Assembly: GCA_021824625.1 (NCBI GenBank)
Contig: JAKAKE010000186.1
Coordinates: 3,995 to 67,994, forward strand
Direction of reading: 5' to 3'
Length of the DNA: 64,000 bases
Source of the DNA: Bacteroidota bacterium
GTDB taxonomy: Bacteria > Bacteroidota > Ignavibacteria > Kapaibacteriales > UBA2268
The translations under genes and the position numbers were made by a program. This document shows, piece by piece, positions 4,581-42,775 of this stretch. Position 1 is the first letter of the stretch. Every line of letters begins with the position of its first letter. The notes below the pieces were generated by a model that worked only from the letters and a program-made list of their open reading frames with translations, was not told the DNA's origin and searched no databases.

Positions 4581-5642
4581 ATGACATTATTAATTAAAAA
4601 AATAATAAAGTATCCTATGAAAAATTCATCTTCAATGAATGAAAAGAAACTGCAAACCGGAGTTCACAGATTACTTTCCGACCCGTCTAAGATTTACTCA
4701 ACTGCGAGCGGGAAAAGACTTCAGGTGCTTTCACCCGGAAGACTAAATGTCCATGAGGGTCCTGATTTTATTGATATTGCATTACTTTTGCAAGGCAATG
4801 TTATTGTTGCAGACGCAGAATTTCATGTGAAAAGTTCGGAGTGGAACGCTCATAATCATAGTAGCGATGACAATTATAAATCGGTGGTTCTGCATATCGT
4901 TTTCGAGGATGATGTTAAACTTTCATTTCCTTTTGAAACTTTAATAATGAATCGCGATGAAGTTTTAAATGCTTCAGACGATATTTCTTTTGAAATTAAT
5001 ATTCCAGATGTTTTTCCAATCGAAGAGCTTCAGCAGTTTGCATTAATAAGGCTTCTGAGAAAGACATCGGAAGCCAAAAAATATGTGAATCAGCACGGGC
5101 TTGATTCGGGTTTCCAAATGCTTGCCGGTGAGTTTTTGAATAAGTATTTTAACAGTCGAAAAAGGCCTGTTTATACTTCCGAGAGACTTGAACAGATTCT
5201 GCAAATTCTTCCATCTTCACATGTTTTTCAAATCATTAAACAGTTATCTGAAGGTACAGAACTACACATACCGGATATGATGCAAATGTTAATCAAAACA
5301 AAAATCACTGATGAGGGAGCACATTTGAGGAGGGAGCTTGTGTTCAATTCTGTTCTGCCACTTGCTCTATGCCTTGCAAATGAGGAAAGCCGCATTAATT
5401 TATTCCTTTGGTACTGGTCAACTCCGGCACTGCACAGTTATGGAATACTTAAACGAAGATTTAAGGATTTTCCTCAGAATTTCATCTGGCAGCAGCAGGG
5501 AATGTTGGAATACATAAGGAACTACGGAAGTAAGACAATTGTCATATCAGATGTCATAAAAGATTATGGTTTTGCCGAAGTGCTGGATTTCTATTATCTT
5601 GGTGGAAGTCCGTATAAGAAATATCCGTTTGAGGAGAATTAA
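4581..5642 (+). CDS. DUF2851-family protein (the true start is probably ATG 4617 or 4635)
   Basis: GPDFIDIAL...AEFHVKSSEWNAHNHSSDDNYKSVVLHIV matches my memory of the DUF2851 signature. The ATG at 4581 lies inside a REP-like hairpin (4558-4586). Confidence 0.6.
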   Translation: MTLLIKKIIKYPMKNSSSMNEKKLQTGVHRLLSDPSKIYSTASGKRLQVLSPGRLNVHEGPDFIDIALLLQGNVIVADAEFHVKSSEWNAHNHSSDDNYKSVVLHIVFEDDVKLSFPFETLIMNRDEVLNASDDISFEINIPDVFPIEELQQFALIRLLRKTSEAKKYVNQHGLDSGFQMLAGEFLNKYFNSRKRPVYTSERLEQILQILPSSHVFQIIKQLSEGTELHIPDMMQMLIKTKITDEGAHLRRELVFNSVLPLALCLANEESRINLFLWYWSTPALHSYGILKRRFKDFPQNFIWQQQGMLEYIRNYGSKTIVISDVIKDYGFAEVLDFYYLGGSPYKKYPFEEN

Positions 5643-5679
5643 ATTTAATTACTAATTACTTATTAATAGATGAGGTGTT

Positions 5680-7077
5680 ATGTTTTTTAGAAAAATTATA
5701 TTTATTAAAATATCTCTCCTTTTGATTACATTTTGCAGGTTATTTTCACTTGAAACATCTGACTCTAATAATGTTGTGAATAATTTCAATTTCAAAGTCA
5801 AGGGTAGTTCCATAACACAATTTGGAGCAGAAACACAAAATTATATAATACCAAATTTTCTGGCTTTACCTTCTGATTCATATTATTCAAACATCCGAAA
5901 TAGATTGCCCGATAAACTATTGAGGAATGTGACAGACAATCCACTAATTCACGGAGCTGCATACATAGATTTTAATTTGGGATTTAAGTATCACGGTATT
6001 TCAATTTCAACTAATTTAATTGCTGAGCATCGGGGTATTTCTTATGGTCCATTAAGTACAAAAAGTATGATTGTATTTCCGAAATATAAATTTGCCTTTG
6101 ACACAAGCATTGGTTTATTTGATGATAGGATGAAGGTTGGCGGCTCAATTGGCAATTATGATAATCTGAAACTTTATGAGGGCTTGACTATTTACAATAT
6201 GGATTGCCAGGGTGCTGAATTATATTTGAATTGGAAAAATATAAAATTTCAATTTATCTCTGTTGGCGATTTAGTAAATGGTATTGGTCTAAATCTTGAT
6301 GCTACTCTCGATTGGATATTATCTGTTCACAATTTAAAAATAACTGATAATGTTAATATGGATATTCAATTGGGGTATTTTGAAAATCTGTTGGTATTAC
6401 GTTCAAGAAACAGTGACGGGTTTTATATCTCAGCCAATCTATATAATGAGAAAATTCAAATTTATTCGCAATTTTCTGTCAGGGATTTGAATAATCTGAG
6501 TGATTTGAAATGGCGTTCAGCCTTTCTCATTGGAATTAAATCAAATTTTGAGAATGAGAATATGATAATAGGATTGAAGGGTGAAATACGTTATTATGGG
6601 AGTAATTTTAACAAGGATTATTATGACCATACAGTTAGTTTCAGAAAAATGCCCAAAACGTCAGAAGGTATTAACCCGCGTGAATATAGTTATAATAATA
6701 CAATAGGAGATAATCTGTATCCCTTGTATGCTTATGAACGTCCTTTCAGTCAGTGGGCTGTATATACTGAATATCAGAAGAAGAATGCTCTTGGTTTAGT
6801 TTTTCTTATAAACAGTAAATATTATTTTTATGATAAATTATTTGCTAATGCTGATTTTGATTTGAATTTTATAAGAGCAAGTTATGAACCTGGTTTTTGG
6901 TATCCATTTTATAATATCGGCTTGGGTTGGGAGCCGGTAATAAATAATTTCATTAATTTGAGTTTTACGAATAAAGGGATGAACCTTGATAAACATTATC
7001 CTACTTTTTATTTGTATGATTCTCCAAATATAATGATAAACCTGCATTTCGATTTCGAGTTAATAAAAGGGAAATAA
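5680..7077 (+). CDS. Hypothetical secreted, beta-rich (possibly outer-membrane) protein
   Basis: N-terminal hydrophobic signal-like segment. Y/F/N/G-rich alternating pattern throughout. No motif recognised. Confidence 0.45.
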   Translation: MFFRKIIFIKISLLLITFCRLFSLETSDSNNVVNNFNFKVKGSSITQFGAETQNYIIPNFLALPSDSYYSNIRNRLPDKLLRNVTDNPLIHGAAYIDFNLGFKYHGISISTNLIAEHRGISYGPLSTKSMIVFPKYKFAFDTSIGLFDDRMKVGGSIGNYDNLKLYEGLTIYNMDCQGAELYLNWKNIKFQFISVGDLVNGIGLNLDATLDWILSVHNLKITDNVNMDIQLGYFENLLVLRSRNSDGFYISANLYNEKIQIYSQFSVRDLNNLSDLKWRSAFLIGIKSNFENENMIIGLKGEIRYYGSNFNKDYYDHTVSFRKMPKTSEGINPREYSYNNTIGDNLYPLYAYERPFSQWAVYTEYQKKNALGLVFLINSKYYFYDKLFANADFDLNFIRASYEPGFWYPFYNIGLGWEPVINNFINLSFTNKGMNLDKHYPTFYLYDSPNIMINLHFDFELIKGK

Positions 7078-12795: not shown

Positions 12796-12930
12796 TTTTC
12801 TCCCTTTATTAAAGGGAGACTAAGAAGGATTATTAACAAAGTTTTCTCCCTTTACAAAAGGGAGACTAAGAGGGATTATTAACAAAGTTTTCTCCCTTTA
12901 TAAAAGGGAGACTAAGAGGGAATATTAATA
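12796..12930. repeat. Tandem repeat, 46-bp unit x about 3, each with a CTCCCTTTA-N-TAAAGGGAG palindrome
   Basis: Unit starts at 12796, 12842 and 12888. Confidence 0.9.
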
Positions 12931-12955
12931 AATATATAACAAAGCGAAATCAAAC

Positions 12956-13870
12956 ATGAATATTATCGAAGGTAGTTACATTAATGCCGGGAAAAAGAAT
13001 TTATATGTGAAAATTCTTGGTGAAGGTTTTCCTGCTGTGGTTATTGAACCTGCATGGGGAGGCTTATCTTCAGAATGGCAGGAAATTCAATATGAGTTGT
13101 CAAAACATACGACTGTTATAACTTATGACCGTGCCGGCTATGGAGAAAGCCCAAAAGGTGAACTGCAGCGTGATGGCAAACACATTGCAACCGAACTTTA
13201 TACAATGCTTTCAAATACTAACATACGTGAGCCATACATCTTTGTAGGTCATTCGGCAGGCGGTCTTTATGTTCAGCTTTATGTTAAAATGTTCCCTATG
13301 GATGTGGCAGGTATTATTCTTGTTGATTCAATAACCGCTGATAATGAAGAATTCGACAAGCTGGATGTCCAGACATATCAATCAACTGTTTCTTTTCCTG
13401 CACGAATGGCAAACATCAGGAAGCTGCTTGAAATAGATAAAGAACAGTTTTCAGCGCAGATATTACCATTGCTTCAAAATCTTTATAACGGAATGGCTGA
13501 TGACATTAAGCAACAGCTAATAGCTTACCAAACTGAGCAGGACTTTTATCAAACTCTGATTGATGAGTATGATGCTTCTTTCGAAACATACAAGCAACTA
13601 AAAGAAATAAAAATGCTTCCTAATTTTCCTCTGAAAGTTCTTTGCAGGGATTATAAAGTTATGCTCGATATTTCTAAGCAAATCGGAATACCTGAAGAAG
13701 AAGCCCGTGCTGTAGAGGAACTTTGGCTTAAACAAAGCAAAAACTTACTGAATCTATCTTCAAACAGTGAATTTTATTTAGTGTCTGACAGCAGTCATTC
13801 AATCCACCAGACGAGACCTGATGCGGTGATTAAAGCGGTTGTAGATATGGTGGAGAAGGTGAGAGGGTAG
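12956..13870 (+). CDS. Alpha/beta-fold hydrolase
   Basis: Nucleophile elbow VGHSAGG. C-terminal SSHSIHQ (His of the triad). Confidence 0.75.
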   Translation: MNIIEGSYINAGKKNLYVKILGEGFPAVVIEPAWGGLSSEWQEIQYELSKHTTVITYDRAGYGESPKGELQRDGKHIATELYTMLSNTNIREPYIFVGHSAGGLYVQLYVKMFPMDVAGIILVDSITADNEEFDKLDVQTYQSTVSFPARMANIRKLLEIDKEQFSAQILPLLQNLYNGMADDIKQQLIAYQTEQDFYQTLIDEYDASFETYKQLKEIKMLPNFPLKVLCRDYKVMLDISKQIGIPEEEARAVEELWLKQSKNLLNLSSNSEFYLVSDSSHSIHQTRPDAVIKAVVDMVEKVRG

Positions 13871-13873
13871 AAT

Positions 13874-14134
13874 TTATACCAAAGGTTCAATCTTTTTTAA
13901 TCCTTTGTGATTTTGAGCTAAATTCCAATTATCCATAAGTTCGTTCTTGTGAATCGCAGCCCACTCCATAACCAAGCCAAGAACCCTTGGTGGCAGATTA
14001 CCGATTATTATATTCAGATCGTTGATTGAAATCTCAGCATTAAATTCATTGTATGTTGCGTGGAAATGTGGCGGCTGATGTTCACTGAAGAACATTGATA
14101 TTATTATTCCGAAAAATCTGCTAATTTGTGGCAT
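13874..14134 (-). CDS. DUF4160-domain protein
   Basis: MPQISRFFGIIISMFFSEHQPPHFHATY signature. Confidence 0.75.
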   Translation of the reverse strand: MPQISRFFGIIISMFFSEHQPPHFHATYNEFNAEISINDLNIIIGNLPPRVLGLVMEWAAIHKNELMDNWNLAQNHKGLKKIEPLV

Positions 14135-14408
14135 ATTCTAACTCGGTTTGTTCCCACTCCCTGAAAGTCATATTTCTTAGTTCCAAATATAGACTATTAG
14201 GACATAATTCAATGATTTTATTCCAGGCAATCGCATTTGTTTCATTACTGATATACACTTTTGAAAATAAATCATTTTCATCCCAATCATTGAATACTCC
14301 TTTATGTGCCAAATGGGATAAATCTAATTCACCTTCGACATCATCGGAATATTTAAGCCAGATTTTATAATTATCAAGTGACTTTACCATTAATGGTTTT
14401 GGGAACAT
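14121..14408 (-). CDS. DUF2442-domain protein
   Basis: Pattern V..L.NYKIWLKYSD...ELDLS...GVF..W...LF..V.I....AIAW. Overlaps the DUF4160 gene by 14 bp. Confidence 0.7.
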   Translation of the reverse strand: MFPKPLMVKSLDNYKIWLKYSDDVEGELDLSHLAHKGVFNDWDENDLFSKVYISNETNAIAWNKIIELCPNSLYLELRNMTFREWEQTELEYATN

Positions 14409-14463
14409 TTTTTCAATTATTTATTGTTAAACATATCAAATTTAGAAACGTTTCTATAATATT

Positions 14464-14504
14464 ATTATTATTGACTTTTTTCCTTTGGTGGTATTGTAAT
14501 GAAG
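14464..14504. repeat. 41-bp junction element, copy 1
   Basis: ATTATTATTGACTTTTTTCCTTTGGTGGTATTGTAATGAAG. 39/41 identical to 15413-15453. Confidence 0.85.
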
Positions 14505-14525
14505 ATGAAATAAGAATAAAGAATA

Positions 14526-14858
14526 TTACAAATACTCTTCTATTTCTTTTTTCAATAGTGGAATATGTTTTAATATAATTCCCCATATAATTTCATCAGA
14601 AATATTATCATATGAATGAATAATCCTATTTCTTAAATCTATAATTTGTCTTGAATTTTGAATTTCAAATCCCGGAGATATTTTTAAAATTCTATTTATT
14701 GCTTCACCGATAATTTCAAGATTTCTTTGTACCGCTCTTTTGGTTTTGATATCCTTGCAGAAATCTGAAAAAATTCTTGGTTTATCTTCAAAATAAGATG
14801 CTATCTCATTAATAGAATTTAATATATCATGTAAATAAGTTCTGATTAATTCATCCAT
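14526..14858 (-). CDS. hepT: HepT-type HEPN (DUF86) toxin
   Basis: RNRIIHSYDNI (Rx4H) motif. 8-bp overlap with the upstream MNT gene. Confidence 0.8.
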   Translation of the reverse strand: MDELIRTYLHDILNSINEIASYFEDKPRIFSDFCKDIKTKRAVQRNLEIIGEAINRILKISPGFEIQNSRQIIDLRNRIIHSYDNISDEIIWGIILKHIPLLKKEIEEYL

Positions 14859-15192
14859 ATATAAGAACCTTGCTATTATCTATTGATTTTATCAAATATG
14901 GATTATTCAATGCCTGTTTTTCGAGTAAATCTATATCTCTTTTCAATAAATCATGTATAGCAAATTTTAAACTGAAATAATTATCCGGATAAGACTCAAG
15001 TTCCATATGTTTGAAACTGACAACAAAGTCATAATCACTATCCTCTCTTAAATTATCTTTCAAGGCTGAACCGAATAAATAGAGTGATTCAACTTTGTGT
15101 AATACACAAAGCTTACGAATATCATCAATAATTTCTTTACTTAAATTCATAATATTATACAAAATCTTTTTTTTCTTTAAATTAAAAAACAA
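14851..15192 (-). CDS. mntA: MntA-type nucleotidyltransferase antitoxin
   Basis: LYLFGSALKDNLREDSDYDFVV motif. Paired with the DUF86 gene. Confidence 0.8.
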   Translation of the reverse strand: MFFNLKKKKILYNIMNLSKEIIDDIRKLCVLHKVESLYLFGSALKDNLREDSDYDFVVSFKHMELESYPDNYFSLKFAIHDLLKRDIDLLEKQALNNPYLIKSIDNSKVLIYG

Positions 15193-15217
15193 AAATAAAA
15201 AATAAAATCTATATGAA

Positions 15218-15409
15218 TTAATTGGACTTAAGAATTACTTCCAGACATCCTCTTATTGCATCTTTGATATTTTCAACTGCTTCTTCGATTGTCTCGCTTT
15301 GTGAATGACATCCGGGTATTGCGGGACAATGTGATACATACCCCAAATCTTCCCCTTCTTCAACTACAATTCTGTAATGCATATTTAAGTCTTTTAATAA
15401 ATTATTCAT
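15218..15409 (-). CDS. HicB-like (UPF0150) antitoxin-fold protein, orphan (no adjacent HicA)
   Basis: YRIVVEEGEDLGYVSHCPAIPGCHSQSETIEEAVENIKDAIRGCLEV parallels the HicB at 19154-19390. Confidence 0.7.
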   Translation of the reverse strand: MNNLLKDLNMHYRIVVEEGEDLGYVSHCPAIPGCHSQSETIEEAVENIKDAIRGCLEVILKSN

Positions 15410-15412
15410 TTC

Positions 15413-15453
15413 ATTGTTATTGACTTTTTTCCTTAGGTGGTATTGTAATGAAG
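15413..15453. repeat. 41-bp junction element, copy 2
   Basis: ATTGTTATTGACTTTTTTCCTTAGGTGGTATTGTAATGAAG. Confidence 0.85.
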
Positions 15454-15488
15454 AAGAGGATTAAAGTATTCTCATTAATTATCAGAAC

Positions 15489-16583
15489 TTAGTTATCAAT
15501 ATCATTAAATACACTATTTGCTTTTGAAATATAAGCTAATTCTGACCCTTCGGATTTAATTTCCAAGTCATGTAATTCAATCTCTTCCTTTTTTAATTGA
15601 AAATTCCATTTGAATAATTCGCTGAAATTACCCTTTAATAAATTTTCTATAAATCCGATACTTCTATAAATTAACTTTTCTTGTTTTAATATTTTGGTTA
15701 GGATTTTATGTTTGATTAAAGAATTCTCGTATTGTATTAAAAGATATTCTATTTTCTCTTCAATTTCGTGAATATTTAGATTGGAGTTTGATATATCATT
15801 AACAAAATTCTTTAAACCTAAAAAATACAAATAAGAATCAGAATCATTTTTAAAATTAAATATATCCTCCCATTGACAATCCTCAGAAGGCATAGGTAAT
15901 TTATTAATAATTATCTTAAGTACTGAATGTTTTTTAGTTTCAATATTTTCAATTGGCAAAATGTTGTTGACTATAGGAACAGAATCATATTCAATATGAT
16001 GATTGAACCATATTGATTCTTCTCTGACTGCAATCTCATGTGCAAGATTAATTATTTCAAAATCTTTATAAAATCCAATTAATTCTTTTCTTTTTGGGAA
16101 ATCATCATTTTTTATAGAACCCTCTTTTAATATTGCCTTCATCTCTTCAATACTTATTGGTGATCCATAAATTTTTCGTATATCTTTACAATAATCTCTA
16201 TTATTTGTATAATTTAATAGATAATTACTAAATTCTCTACTAAGTTTTTGACATTTACTAATATATTTATTATCAATATCAAACATTGTGGCTCTTTTAA
16301 TAATGATTTTATCATTTTCAAGAAGATAATCTAATTCTTTATCTAATTTTTTTATGTTTTCTGGTGAATTATGTTTTTTTGAATTTAGGTATATATAATA
16401 ATAGTAGTCAAATAATATTAAGTTATCAAAAGTTCTTACTTTTTCAAATGGATTTTCATTTTTAACTTCGAATTTCCATTCATTTAATCCAATAATAAAT
16501 AATTTATCAAAAATGAGGTAATCCTGTTTGAGATTTTCAACTGTCAGATTATTTAAGGATCTAATACCGATTAACTTCTTCAT
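15489..16583 (-). CDS. Hypothetical 364-aa protein, no recognisable domain, AT-rich
   Basis: Long uninterrupted ORF in very AT-rich DNA. K/N/I/E-rich, and I could find no nucleotide-binding or nuclease motif. Confidence 0.55.
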   Translation of the reverse strand: MKKLIGIRSLNNLTVENLKQDYLIFDKLFIIGLNEWKFEVKNENPFEKVRTFDNLILFDYYYYIYLNSKKHNSPENIKKLDKELDYLLENDKIIIKRATMFDIDNKYISKCQKLSREFSNYLLNYTNNRDYCKDIRKIYGSPISIEEMKAILKEGSIKNDDFPKRKELIGFYKDFEIINLAHEIAVREESIWFNHHIEYDSVPIVNNILPIENIETKKHSVLKIIINKLPMPSEDCQWEDIFNFKNDSDSYLYFLGLKNFVNDISNSNLNIHEIEEKIEYLLIQYENSLIKHKILTKILKQEKLIYRSIGFIENLLKGNFSELFKWNFQLKKEEIELHDLEIKSEGSELAYISKANSVFNDIDN

Positions 16584-16680
16584 TACAAACCGTCAAAGTT
16601 TATTAAATTAAAAAAATCTTGTGATTTCACATTAAGAGCAGAAAATTAATCTTGATTTATAATAAATCTTTGTTTATTTC

Positions 16681-16890
16681 CTATTCTTCACAAAATTCAA
16701 TAGTTAACTTATTTTTTAATTTGTCATTTTCAACTTTACAATCTTTTATTTTTATTTTAACATTTTTTCTGCCTGTTTTATTTTCAATTTCAGTCTTTAT
16801 TTCGCTTATAGCATTGTTGATTTTTTTTGCAATATCTGGACCATAGTTACCTGTTAAAGCTGTTTGGGAGTCAATTGGAAATTTATTCAT
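16681..16890 (-). CDS. Hypothetical small protein (69 aa from MNKFPIDSQ...)
   Basis: AAGGA RBS-like sequence upstream of ATG 16890. The longer ORF-track start (16953) adds a hydrophobic low-complexity leader. Confidence 0.35.
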   Translation of the reverse strand: MNKFPIDSQTALTGNYGPDIAKKINNAISEIKTEIENKTGRKNVKIKIKDCKVENDKLKNKLTIEFCEE

Positions 16891-17027
16891 ATCATTTTTC
16901 CTTAAATAATAAAAAAACGCAAATTTATAAAAAAAAACAATGATAGTGAACAAATTTAAAAATTTATTTAAAATAACATCTCAATTCCACGTCTATACAA
17001 TAAATGTCTATACAAATAATTTGAAAA

Positions 17028-17477
17028 GTGTGTATGCGGTTGGAAGATGAAATAATGCAGAAGAAGTTCAAGAGTGAGTACCATAAATTGCTGATAAATA
17101 TAATTTTTACAGGTAATTGGGTGAATGCTGAGAGTATTAAATTCCTTAAGCAATTTGGTATTTCACCTCAACAGTATAACCTGATGAGGATACTCAGGGG
17201 GAGGCATCCTGAATCTGCCTCCATTACTCTTCTGACTGAAAGAATGTTGGATAAAATGTCAAATGCAAGCCGCTTAGTTGAGAAATTGAAAAAGAAAAGT
17301 CTTGTCGAGAGAATTGAATGTCCCAACGACAGGCGAAAGGTAGAAGTTACAATTAATGAAAAAGGATTGGAACTTTTGAAAAAAATTGATGATTATGAGT
17401 ATGAAAAGAATTTTAAGAATTTATCGGTAACAGAAGCTAAACTCCTAAATTCATTACTTGATAAATTCAGAGGATAG
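17028..17477 (+). CDS. MarR-family transcriptional regulator (likely start 17055)
   Basis: Winged-HTH ITLLTERMLDKMSNASRLVEKLKKKSLVERIECPNDRRKVEVTINEKG. Confidence 0.8.
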   Translation: MCMRLEDEIMQKKFKSEYHKLLINIIFTGNWVNAESIKFLKQFGISPQQYNLMRILRGRHPESASITLLTERMLDKMSNASRLVEKLKKKSLVERIECPNDRRKVEVTINEKGLELLKKIDDYEYEKNFKNLSVTEAKLLNSLLDKFRG

Positions 17478-18699: not shown

Positions 18700-18771
18700 T
18701 AAAGTTGTTAATTTCTTAAAATTCCTTCATAAAGATTTTTGCCTGAAAGCACATATCGTAGTCGTTCCATA

Positions 18772-18957
18772 TCAGGTCACTAAGCTCAATTTTGAATGCT
18801 TGAATAAATCCTTTTTAAGATACCTCTTTTCGTTTGGATATGTAGAGGACTTCAATAATTTTGAAAAATCAATAATCTTGGATTCATCGTTATTGAATAC
18901 AAGTAATATTTTATAATCTGAAATATATTTGGCTTCATTTATTTTTACAATTTTCAT
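18772..18957 (-). CDS. DUF2442-like protein, C-terminally short (possible remnant)
   Basis: MKIVKINEAKYISDYKILLVFNNDESKIIDFSKLL resembles the DUF2442 N-terminus. 61 aa versus 95 aa for the copy at 14121-14408. Confidence 0.45.
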   Translation of the reverse strand: MKIVKINEAKYISDYKILLVFNNDESKIIDFSKLLKSSTYPNEKRYLKKDLFKHSKLSLVT

Positions 18958-19082
18958 TTTAATCTCCTTGTTATGATTTGGGATTTAATATCTTTCTTCC
19001 AAACAAAGTAATCTACCCATTTTTCAACAATCTTTTTAGAATAATGACGAACAAAGGATTCAAAATCTTTTCTTAATAGCAT
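18954..19082 (-). CDS. 42-aa ORF, possible C-terminal remnant of a DUF4160 partner
   Basis: ATGA overlap with the downstream DUF2442-like gene. Translates as MLLRKDFESFVRHYSKKIVEKWVDYFVWKKDIKSQIITRRLK. Below the ORF-track cutoff. Confidence 0.25.
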   Translation of the reverse strand: MLLRKDFESFVRHYSKKIVEKWVDYFVWKKDIKSQIITRRLK

Positions 19083-19153
19083 AACATTTAATCAGTAGTA
19101 TTTATATTTAATATCAACAATTTTAGTATTTTGTTTACGTTACAAAAGAATAA

Positions 19154-19390
19154 ATGTTATTTAATTCAGGAAATTTTATGACGAGAGAAATTCCAATAAT
19201 TATTGAAAGAGATGAAGAAGGATATTATGTTGGCTCAGTTCCATCATTAAAAGGCTGTCACACACAGGCAAAATCACTCGATGAGCTTATAGAAAGAATA
19301 AAAGAAGCAATTGAATTATGCCTTGAAGTCGGAGAAGAAGATTTTTCAAATCGTTTTGTCGGTATTCAGCAGGTTTCTGTTGAAGTATGA
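19154..19390 (+). CDS. hicB: HicB-family antitoxin (likely start 19178)
   Basis: IPIIIERDEEGYYVGSVPSLKGCHTQAKSLDELIERIKEAIELCLEV. 4-bp overlap with hicA. Confidence 0.8.
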   Translation: MLFNSGNFMTREIPIIIERDEEGYYVGSVPSLKGCHTQAKSLDELIERIKEAIELCLEVGEEDFSNRFVGIQQVSVEV

Positions 19391-19590
19391 GTAATATACC
19401 CTCATTAACAGGAACAGAAATTATCCGAATACTGAATTCATTAGGATTTAAGGTGATAAGGATAAAAGGTAGTCAGCATATCCTAAAACTTCCCGATAAA
19501 AGAACTACTGTTATACCAGTTCATAAGGGTGAAGCAATAGGTCCAGGCTTACTATTAAAAATTCTGAAAGATTGCAAACTAACTAAATAA
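19387..19590 (+). CDS. hicA: HicA-family mRNA interferase toxin
   Basis: LTGTEIIRILNSLGFKVIRIKGSQHIL...TVIPVHKGEAIGPGLLLKILKD. Confidence 0.8.
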   Translation: MSNIPSLTGTEIIRILNSLGFKVIRIKGSQHILKLPDKRTTVIPVHKGEAIGPGLLLKILKDCKLTK

Positions 19591-19616
19591 GAATTTAAAG
19601 AATTATTGTAGAAAAT

Positions 19617-41569: not shown

Positions 41570-42775
41570 TTAATTATCTATTCCGTAATCATCAAGTTTC
41601 CTGTAAAGGGTTCTCTCGCTGATGCCGAGTGCCTGTGCGGCTTGGCGGCGATTACCGTTAAATCTGTCCAAAGCAATAGTAATTAGTTTCTTCTCCATAT
41701 CCTCCAAACGAATAATATTATCTTCAATCTTAAAATCATCCTTGTCATCCGTATATGAAATTACAGGTTCAGGCATTAAAATTTTATCTTTTAAGTCTTC
41801 AAGTTTAGCATTTAATGTTATGAAATATCTTTTCAAATCAGTTATGTCATTTTTTATTTCGAGTAAAGTCCTGAAAATCAGTTCCAGCTCGATATTTCTC
41901 GGTTCGGCATACTCCCTTAACGGTATCATTGAAACTTCTGTCGCAAGGGGTTCTCTGCTTCCGGGTGGCAGGGCAGGAGCTATATGCCTTCTCAATACAT
42001 CAGGAGAAATATATGTTGCCTGTTCGAGTGTAATCAATGTCTCAATAAGATTTCTAAGTTCTCTGACATTTCCAGCCCAGTTCATTCCCTGGAGTATTTT
42101 AACTGCATCATCAGAAATACCGTCATATTTCAGGGATAATTTATCCGATACTTTTTGAGCAAAATATTCAACTAATAAAGGAATGTCTTCAATATGTTGA
42201 CGTAATGAGGGAAGTTCAATCTTAACGGAATTTAAACGGAAGAATAAATCTTGTCTGAAGTTTCCTTCCCTTACTTCATAAGTGAGGTCTCTGTTCGTTG
42301 CAGCAATTACCCTGACGTCAACTTTTCTCAATGCTGAAGAACCGAGTCTGGAAAATTCTCCTGACTCGAGAATACGAAGTAGTTTCACCTGCGTTCCAAC
42401 CGGCATCTCACCGATTTCATCCAGAAAAATAGTTCCTTTGTCTGCTGACTCGAAAAACCCTTTTCTTTGTTCAATAGCTCCTGTAAAAGCACCTTTTTCA
42501 TGTCCGAAAAGTTCGGACTCAAGTAAAGTTTCAGGTATAGCTCCACAATTAACACTTATAAATGAGGATTTATTTCTGTTGCTTAATCCATGAAGTGCTT
42601 TAGCAAAAATCTCTTTGCCTGTTCCTGTCTCACCTGTTATTAATACTGTTAAATCGGTAGGTGCCGCCTGAACTAACTTTTGAATAACTTCAGTCATGAG
42701 CCTGGATTTCCCAATGATTCCATACCTCATCTGAAGCATATTATAAATATTTTTATCGCTGCTTATATTATTCAT
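41570..42775 (-). CDS. Sigma-54-dependent transcriptional activator (AAA+ + Fis-type HTH, no N-terminal sensor domain)
   Basis: Walker A GETGTGKE, GAFTGA loop (EKGAFTGA), and C-terminal RRQAAQALGISERTLYRKL. Confidence 0.9.
   Translation of the reverse strand: MNNISSDKNIYNMLQMRYGIIGKSRLMTEVIQKLVQAAPTDLTVLITGETGTGKEIFAKALHGLSNRNKSSFISVNCGAIPETLLESELFGHEKGAFTGAIEQRKGFFESADKGTIFLDEIGEMPVGTQVKLLRILESGEFSRLGSSALRKVDVRVIAATNRDLTYEVREGNFRQDLFFRLNSVKIELPSLRQHIEDIPLLVEYFAQKVSDKLSLKYDGISDDAVKILQGMNWAGNVRELRNLIETLITLEQATYISPDVLRRHIAPALPPGSREPLATEVSMIPLREYAEPRNIELELIFRTLLEIKNDITDLKRYFITLNAKLEDLKDKILMPEPVISYTDDKDDFKIEDNIIRLEDMEKKLITIALDRFNGNRRQAAQALGISERTLYRKLDDYGIDN

Follow-up and report, generated by a model that had tools for sequence, protein, structure and literature searches.

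Defence islands at chromosomal hotspots are a well-established kind of genomic locus. Here we describe a locus that resembles them, located in a stretch of 64,000 nucleotides from a Bacteroidota bacterium (assembly GCA_021824625.1, contig JAKAKE010000186.1), hereafter called the window. The gene in question encodes a protein of 364 amino acids (aa), has the arms of a short inverted repeat at its two ends, and lies in a short, AT-rich and strain-variable islet (Table 1). As in defence and toxin-antitoxin islets, HepT/MntA, HicB-like, DUF4160/DUF2442 and unknown genes are placed between core genes. Unlike defence islets, the window islet carries toxin-antitoxin-type modules only, and PADLOC recognised no defence system in the islet itself. 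Our reading of the locus, to which we give a probability of about 0.6, is that the 364-aa gene is a real gene of an uncharacterised family and one module of an acquired, variable toxin-antitoxin islet, that the repeat does not represent the ends of a cassette, and that the neighbourhoods of the family make a role in conflict plausible.

At the protein level, the closest described families are DUF6236 (PF19749) and phrog_23128. DUF6236 proteins are similar in size (~300-360 aa) and also uncharacterised, and the family is matched by four of 72 relatives of the window protein (E<=0.01, best E 6.7e-6). However, the window protein itself falls short of the Pfam gathering threshold and does not match DUF6236 even at E<=1, and the distant relationship is seen only through the relatives. 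No mention of DUF6236 or PF19749 was found in the literature searched. The phage family phrog_23128 (no known function) is matched by eight of the 72 relatives, with a best E of 7.1e-7, and an IMG/VR prophage contig has a family member in its accessory end. Again, the window protein itself has no match, and tblastn detected none among 50,697 phage records and 72,556 plasmids.

At the DNA level, the locus recalls integron cassettes with their attC sites, as well as transposons and miniature inverted-repeat transposable elements (MITEs). The modules are small, look promoter-less and have one orientation, a sequence of about 46-50 bp (the element) recurs at their junctions, and an inverted repeat is located at the ends of one gene. 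In contrast to integrons, the element does not form an attC-type hairpin in either copy or on either strand when folded as single-stranded DNA (-2.7 to -5.2 kcal/mol, z -0.8 to +1.1). Furthermore, the open reading frames (ORFs) scanned between 8.7 and 24.4 kb (within +/-10 kb) encode neither IntI nor any other recombinase, transposase or integrase domain. The integron reading was rejected on these grounds. The locus also resembles the 5'-3' locks of hok-type mRNAs, since the leader and start codon of the ORF have their complement directly 3' of it. This resemblance is a lead only.

The 364-aa gene belongs to a large, uncharacterised family

The first-pass annotation, made from the letters by eye, described the gene as an orphan without an assignable motif. 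The absence of a motif is borne out. Pfam, NCBIfam and PADLOC contain no family for the protein, a PDB profile search with the family gave nothing below E 0.1, and neither profiles nor folds matched HEPN, P-loop nucleoside triphosphatase (NTPase), PD-(D/E)xK or HNH proteins. In PADLOC-DB v2 (5,027 defence-protein models), the window protein matched 0 families and its 72 relatives gave scattered weak single hits. Homology to a housekeeping family, which would have spoken for an ordinary gene, was likewise not found in Pfam, NCBIfam, PADLOC or the PDB. The gene is, however, no orphan. What appeared so by eye and in curated profile libraries has 1,547 homologous clusters at E<=1e-3, and 858 at E<=1e-10, in an exhaustive phmmer search of 1.84 billion cluster representatives. 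A word-indexed search found five relatives with 67%, 50%, 40%, 39% and 38% identity, and a profile search of a set of 5.8 billion proteins returned 6 proteins among the matches listed, none of them new. The family occurs in Acidobacteriota, Proteobacteria, Bacteroidota/Kapabacteria and some prophages, and the source databases label its members "hypothetical protein".

Family members are typically 300-330 aa long (median 313). The window protein is longer and carries two lineage-specific insertions, at residues ~41-75 and ~121-170. It consists of a small N-terminal alpha/beta part and a conserved C-terminal helical domain (residues ~175-360, ~180 aa), over which most of the phmmer homologues align. 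Among the columns that are conserved in 88% or more of 154 members are K19, F25, L87, R187, P230, P232, W238, E239, D247, L257, E273, L281, Y285, H292, E313, F328, L337, E341, G346, E348 and Y351. A check of the individual residues showed that the conserved columns (W238 to Y351) are present in the window protein, as expected for a member of the family. The homologues all start with M-K-K/E/N-(L/I)-I-G. Therefore, the annotated start is right, and the ATG-AAG-AAG inside the right arm of the repeat is native coding sequence. Together, the clusters, the conserved columns and the structural model described below show that the ORF truly codes for a protein, and that its family is large, widespread, functionally uncharacterised and distantly related to DUF6236.

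Structure prediction gave a confident model of the protein but no match to a known fold. The AlphaFold2 model, built from an alignment of 72 sequences, has a predicted local distance difference test score (pLDDT) of 88 and a predicted TM-score (pTM) of 0.84. Three strands (3-9, 27-31 and 199-204) belong to a small alpha/beta part, and the C-terminal bundle includes a helix of 47 residues (271-317). When the model was compared with the PDB and BFVD by Foldseek, no match reached E<1 (best E>1). Since no known catalytic domain or fold matches, the chemistry of the C-terminal domain cannot be named. The fast-diverging N-terminal alpha/beta part, together with the variable insertions, may serve in sensing or specificity. 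The conserved C-terminal helical bundle, which is lined with acidic, His and Tyr residues and carries W238, E239, D247, E273, Y285, H292, E313, E341, G346, E348 and Y351, would then be the effector or oligomerisation part. Such effector chemistry would lie outside the known nuclease, NTPase, TIR, SIR2 and HEPN effectors.

The variable islet and the possible role of the family

The islet is recognised by comparison with a close relative, L017/L018, whose hydrolase is 73% identical. The backbone of TetR, hydrolase, MarR, a 126-aa DoxX-like protein, methyltransferase and SRAP genes is the same in both. DNA homology between the window and L017 stops at 13871 and restarts at 16932. In the slot between these positions, L017 has 642 bp with a DUF2283/DUF4258 pair in place of the 3.06 kb of the window, and the 364-aa gene is missing. 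The surroundings of the islet are ordinary chromosome, with genes for Ogg, HlyD/OEP efflux, a beta-CASP nuclease and a histidine kinase. The islet of the same strain is found, identical, in mine-tailings and mine-drainage metagenomes (the identical contig is L007).

The base composition of the gene is also foreign. Its GC content is 22.9%, in comparison with 33.7% for the window (standard deviation 3.3 in 1095-bp windows). This places the gene, which contains the minimum of the whole stretch, in the lowest 1% of such windows. GC content at third codon positions (GC3) is 17%, versus 33-37% in the flanking conserved genes. Thus, the AT-richness noted in the first-pass annotation is a strong deviation in both measures. 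It is not confined to the gene, however, as the low-GC tract extends over the entire islet, from about 14200 to 16950. The proposal of an insertion needs the same correction: it fits the whole islet, as the synteny break indicates, and not a single-gene cassette bounded by the repeat. The synteny break, the absence of a recombinase and the ordinary chromosomal surroundings together point to an acquired unit that, judged from sequence, is the whole 3.06-kb stack of small modules at a hotspot rather than one gene. The islet would have been built by horizontal acquisition and recombination at this hotspot. The 364-aa gene is one of several independent small accessory modules stacked in it.

All genes of the islet are on the minus strand. 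Their order is DUF4160/DUF2442, element copy 1, HepT/MntA, HicB-like gene, element copy 2, 364-aa gene and 69-aa ORF. The two copies of the element form direct repeats around a 949-bp unit of HicB-like, MntA and HepT genes.

A hint at what the 364-aa protein may do comes from its relatives. We read 18 distinct neighbourhoods of family members. About half of them contain restriction, OLD-nuclease, toxin-antitoxin, Schlafen or prophage genes. These comprise an MmeI-like type IIG restriction-modification enzyme with AAA_21/OLD-TOPRIM genes in Kapabacteria, a DUF3800 gene, MntA/HepT in Nitrosomonas oligotropha, an FRG gene, a group with Uma2, HNH and DUF433/DUF5615, an RHS polymorphic-toxin locus, a prophage end with Schlafen-AlbA_2, deaminase and integrase genes, and the toxin-antitoxin islet of the window itself. 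Because conflict-type or prophage genes are present in about half of the neighbourhoods, a conflict role is plausible. Tentatively, the 364-aa protein could act on its own in conflict, through phage defence or abortive infection. The idea of a defence or abortive-infection gene in the first-pass annotation was, to judge by these neighbourhoods, a reasonable guess. If it is true, the locus points to a new stand-alone gene for immunity, from a large family with neither its own Pfam model nor a structural analogue. Screens by expression and phage challenge could include the 364-aa gene at low cost.

Several points weigh against our reading of the locus. The remaining neighbourhoods, about half, are housekeeping or unannotated (ThiG, AlaRS, ProRS, RecA and a pyridoxal phosphate (PLP) enzyme), and neither the 364-aa protein nor any of ten unannotated neighbours of family members has a match in PADLOC. 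A specific effector chemistry finds no backing in a catalytic motif or a fold analogue. In three metatranscriptomes of the same study, contigs from 9-24 kb are absent. The conserved position of the gene in Acidobacteria would fit a cellular function passed on by vertical inheritance just as well. Furthermore, the targeted test of the inverted repeat (0.7% of shuffles) and its duplex score (z about -4.9), both described in the next section, make the dismissal of the repeat as fortuitous less than secure.

An ordinary cellular role, whether regulatory, structural or metabolic-accessory, is the first alternative. In that case, the presence of the gene in a toxin-antitoxin islet would be incidental. 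We regard this as unlikely, though nearly as likely as a defence role. Evidence for it comes from two divergent Acidobacteria (L009 7665-8615 and L024 6001-7026), in which the family gene occupies the same slot between the genes for ThiG and an NAD-epimerase; the position is thus kept in at least two genomes, and in one of them the gene overlaps the epimerase gene. The neighbouring AlaRS, ProRS, RecA and PLP-enzyme genes and the lack of PADLOC matches are also consistent with it. Within the same slot, however, the family proteins are only 34% identical, whereas the flanking proteins are 48-87% identical. Thus, the family gene is the fastest-evolving or most-replaced one in the Acidobacteria block, a sign of rapid evolution or of alleles being replaced at a fixed site. 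A cellular role is also at odds with the patchy and solitary occurrence of the gene across phyla at unrelated positions, its absence from the syntenic slot of L017, its strongly foreign composition, the member in a prophage accessory region and the PHROG matches of relatives. No conserved partner gene emerged from an all-against-all comparison of neighbours at about 17 loci.

Two of the neighbourhoods have arrangements of their own. In a Kapabacteria metagenome-assembled genome (L001/L002, 2025-7892), the family gene follows the MmeI-like type IIG gene and an unannotated 319-aa gene, with the AAA_21 ATPase/OLD-TOPRIM pair upstream. The 319-aa protein has no Pfam or PADLOC match. In the prophage-like contig end (L030, 1982-11274; IMG/VR UViG_3300049432_000210), a Schlafen AlbA_2 gene and the family member (5563-6450) are accompanied by a gene for a 297-aa protein with a cytidine/dCMP-deaminase domain, located 16 nt downstream of the family member, and by genes for a WDGH-domain protein and a tyrosine integrase. 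A pairing of family member and deaminase is conceivable, though the arrangement was seen only once.

The inverted repeat and the recurring element

An 11-bp inverted repeat bracketing the gene and overlapping its start codon was one reason to suspect a cassette. The repeat is real. The sequence TTGTAATGAAG is present on the plus strand at 15443-15453, and its exact reverse complement is at 16578-16588; a third plus-strand copy is at 14494-14504. The exact match is in fact longer, at 14 bp (TTGTAATGAAGAAG, 15443-15456 / 16575-16588), and extends to 17 of 18 positions when one bulged base is allowed (GGT(A)TTGTAATGAAGAAG, 15439-15456 / 16575-16591). The left arm begins 32 nt downstream of the stop codon of the 364-aa gene, and 1.1 kb separates the two arms. 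They do bracket this gene, as proposed, but not the 69-aa ORF, which was thought to be enclosed as well and which is inside the variable islet but outside the right arm.

How unusual the repeat is depends on the question asked. An exact 14-bp inverted pair, with arms up to 2 kb apart anywhere in 13801-17100, occurs in 19% of dinucleotide shuffles. When the pair is confined to two 150-bp zones at the gene ends, the frequency falls to 0.7%. As RNA, the start-codon region and the 3' flank are predicted to form a duplex of -26.8 kcal/mol, which is reached by 0 of 2000 shuffles (z about -4.9) and ranks first among 68 window ORFs. The repeat therefore stands out locally, but its selection from a 64-kb window was made after the fact. 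A 401-aa ORF elsewhere in the window (41570-42775, minus strand) was used as a control. Its complementarity between start region and 3' flank reaches -26.7 kcal/mol, with a GC-rich CUGCGAG/CUCGCAG core.

The left arm is the end of an element that was recognised in the first-pass annotation as a 41-bp junction sequence. Its position at the end of the element is as described; the element itself is larger, about 46-50 bp. The two copies in the islet are direct repeats with 90% identity. A third copy with different flanks is found in a 383-nt contig from mine-drainage run X2 of the same community and, like copy 2, is immediately upstream of a minus-strand start reading ATG-AAT-AA.... The element thus has at least three copies, which in every case lie just upstream of the start of a small minus-strand gene or ORF. 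With its own flanks and the same position, the third copy therefore indicates that the element is a recurring junction or leader sequence of small minus-strand modules. Scans of JGI metagenomes and IMG/VR revealed no further copies. Its meeting with the 3' end of the 364-aa gene looks incidental.

Other identities of the element were considered. On the plus strand, it reads TTGACT-N18-TGTAAT and AGGTGG-N7-ATG, followed by an ORF of 3-14 codons. This looks like a plus-strand sigma-70 promoter or Shine-Dalgarno start, but a promoter scan did not call it. Shine-Dalgarno sequences are rare in this genome, with even a loose motif in just eight of 43 window genes. A Xer/dif module seems unlikely, since by eye the element has no dyad-symmetric 11-6-11 structure. 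A low-depth joint in run X5 that skips from 14500 to 16970 was taken up as a possible empty site or deletion variant. It proved to be the third element copy, together with an AT-rich flank of its own, and the deletion reading was rejected.

In the homologues, the repeat is absent. At 15 homologous loci, the gene ends show only inverted matches of 6-9 bp, which is the level of chance, and at 16 homologous loci there is no 5'-3' complementarity (z -1.7 to +2.2). The closest homologue, L006, is 67% identical in protein sequence. Its DNA similarity is restricted to window positions 15478-16585, essentially the coding sequence, and neither the inverted repeat nor the element was found in its flanks. 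Thus, the suggestion that a cassette with the same termini might be present elsewhere finds no support at the 15-16 homologous loci, in JGI metagenomes or in IMG/VR. From these sequence comparisons, we infer that the repeat is probably not a pair of transposon- or cassette-type termini. Instead, the start region of the gene itself appears to match the end of a ~46-bp element locally. This match would be fortuitous or, at the most, serve local RNA-level pairing.

RNA-level pairing can be put in two ways. In the broader proposal, the family is a new and widespread single-gene anti-phage system of the abortive-infection type, with at least 1,500 clusters at 50% identity, and the pairing of start region and 3' element checks translation at this locus. 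Taken as a whole, we find this proposal rather doubtful. The narrower one concerns the transcript alone and is improbable. In the predicted pairing, a minus-strand transcript that continues through the gene into the element would fold back, so that its 3' sequence (CUUCUUCAUUACAA(U)ACC) meets the leader with the start codon (GGUUUGUAAUGAAGAAG). Translation of a product that may be toxic would thereby be blocked, much as in the 5'-3' locks of type I toxin mRNAs. RNA from element copy 1 or copy 3 could also act in trans. The strength of the predicted duplex and its rank in the window speak for such a lock, as do the position of the start codon inside the duplex and the absence of a predicted intrinsic terminator between the gene and the element. 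However, the arms are so far apart that ribosomes would load before the 3' arm is made. In addition, the pairing is not conserved at the homologous loci, the control gene comes within 0.1 kcal/mol of the same energy, and no contig from this region is present in the three metatranscriptomes. Known fold-back systems (hok/sok-type loci) are short mRNAs for small peptides, which also counts against a lock here. In contrast to hok-type mRNAs, the window ORF is 1.1 kb long, and its product is a soluble protein of 364 aa rather than a small membrane peptide. We know of no antisense RNA for the 364-aa gene.

It is very improbable that the gene is a discrete mobile cassette, with the inverted repeat as its ends, that was moved by a transposase or recombinase acting in trans. 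Such a cassette would account for a repeat that is exact over 14 bp and present at both gene ends, for its rarity in the targeted test, for a left arm that is part of an element with at least three copies at module junctions, and for the location in variable DNA of foreign composition. Nevertheless, the right arm is inside the gene and includes the start codon and two family-native codons, unlike the terminus of a transposon or MITE. No target-site duplication is present, as the sequences outside the arms (…CCTTAGGTGGTA on one side, ACCGTCAAAG… on the other) are not direct repeats. The repeat and the element are missing from all homologous loci, including the 67%-identical one, and no further copies were found in JGI metagenomes or IMG/VR. 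Finally, there is no recombinase within 10 kb, the 69-aa ORF is outside the bracket, and the other two copies of the element have no inverted partner, as had already been noticed for the copy at 14464-14504 in the first-pass annotation. On the missing target-site duplication, the absence of copies elsewhere and the homologues without repeats, the transposon/MITE reading was rejected too. When a short inverted repeat overlaps a start codon, it is not to be taken for the terminus of a mobile element.

The 69-aa ORF, other modules and feature coordinates

It is likewise very improbable that the 69-aa ORF and the 364-aa gene form a two-gene toxin-antitoxin or sensor-effector pair: they are on the same strand, 97 bp apart and within a variable islet among toxin-antitoxin pairs, but this idea is largely refuted by the absence of a 69-aa relative beside any homologue, in the phage collection or in IMG/VR viral contigs, by the lack of a conserved partner of any kind across about 17 loci, and by the low confidence of the 69-aa model.

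The ORF itself starts with an ATG at 16890, with AAGGA 8 nt upstream. A 90-aa version with a TTG start would extend into the conserved flank on the MarR side. Its product matches no family in Pfam, NCBIfam or PADLOC, and tblastn against the homologous loci found the identical contig only. The single-sequence AlphaFold2 model has a pLDDT of 62.8. The coding status of the ORF and its link to the 364-aa gene are unsupported.

Table 1. Coordinates of the islet, its genes and the repeated sequences within the window
Feature	Position	Strand	Remarks
Alpha/beta hydrolase	12956..13870	+	Conserved left flank of the islet
Strain-variable AT-rich islet	13872..16931	.	3.06 kb, 25.6% GC; between conserved hydrolase and MarR genes
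DUF2442 and DUF4160 genes	13874..14408	-	Overlapping pair; DUF2442 14121-14408, DUF4160 13874-14134 (PF10387, PF13711)
Element copy 1	14459..14508	+	Between HepT stop codon and DUF2442 start codon
HepT-like HEPN ribonuclease toxin, 110 aa	14526..14858	-	PF01934, E 8e-20
MntA-type nucleotidyltransferase	14851..15150	-	Antitoxin of the HepT/MntA pair; PF18765 / PF01909; gene call in L007
HicB-like antitoxin-family gene, 63 aa	15218..15409	-	PF15919, E 5.8e-10
Element copy 2	15408..15457	+	Between 364-aa stop codon and HicB-like start codon
Left arm of inverted repeat, GGTATTGTAATGAAGAAG	15439..15456	+	Exact core 15443-15456; end of element copy 2
364-aa gene	15489..16583	-	Large uncharacterised DUF6236-like family; homologous clusters, conserved residues, AlphaFold2 model
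Right arm of inverted repeat, GGTTTGTAATGAAGAAG on the minus strand	16575..16591	-	8 nt of leader and ATG AAG AAG (M-K-K) of the 364-aa gene
69-aa ORF	16681..16890	-	97 bp upstream of the 364-aa gene; gene call of 69 aa in L007, the identical contig
MarR-family regulator	17028..17477	+	Conserved right flank of the islet

The MntA gene has 99 codons when counted from its ATG; the mechanically called ORF, which starts with TTG, extends to 15192. The HicB-like gene, of the UPF0150 type, is directly upstream of MntA/HepT, with no HicA gene next to it; it might act as an orphan antitoxin or belong to the MntA/HepT module as a third component.

A second small strain-variable islet is located at 18708-19616, between the methyltransferase and SRAP genes, and is not present in L017. 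It contains HicB (19154-19390), HicA (19387-19590), a truncated DUF2442 ORF (18772-18957, minus strand) and a 42-aa ORF. On the other side of the main islet, the intergenic region between the divergent TetR and hydrolase genes contains three tandem units of 46 nt (12796-12933), each with a 21-nt palindrome, TCTCCCTTTAnnAAAGGGAGA. Contigs of runs X3 and X5 show a joint that goes back 33 in this region, which suggests variation in copy number. These tandem repeats may be operators or repetitive extragenic palindromic (REP)-like repeats.

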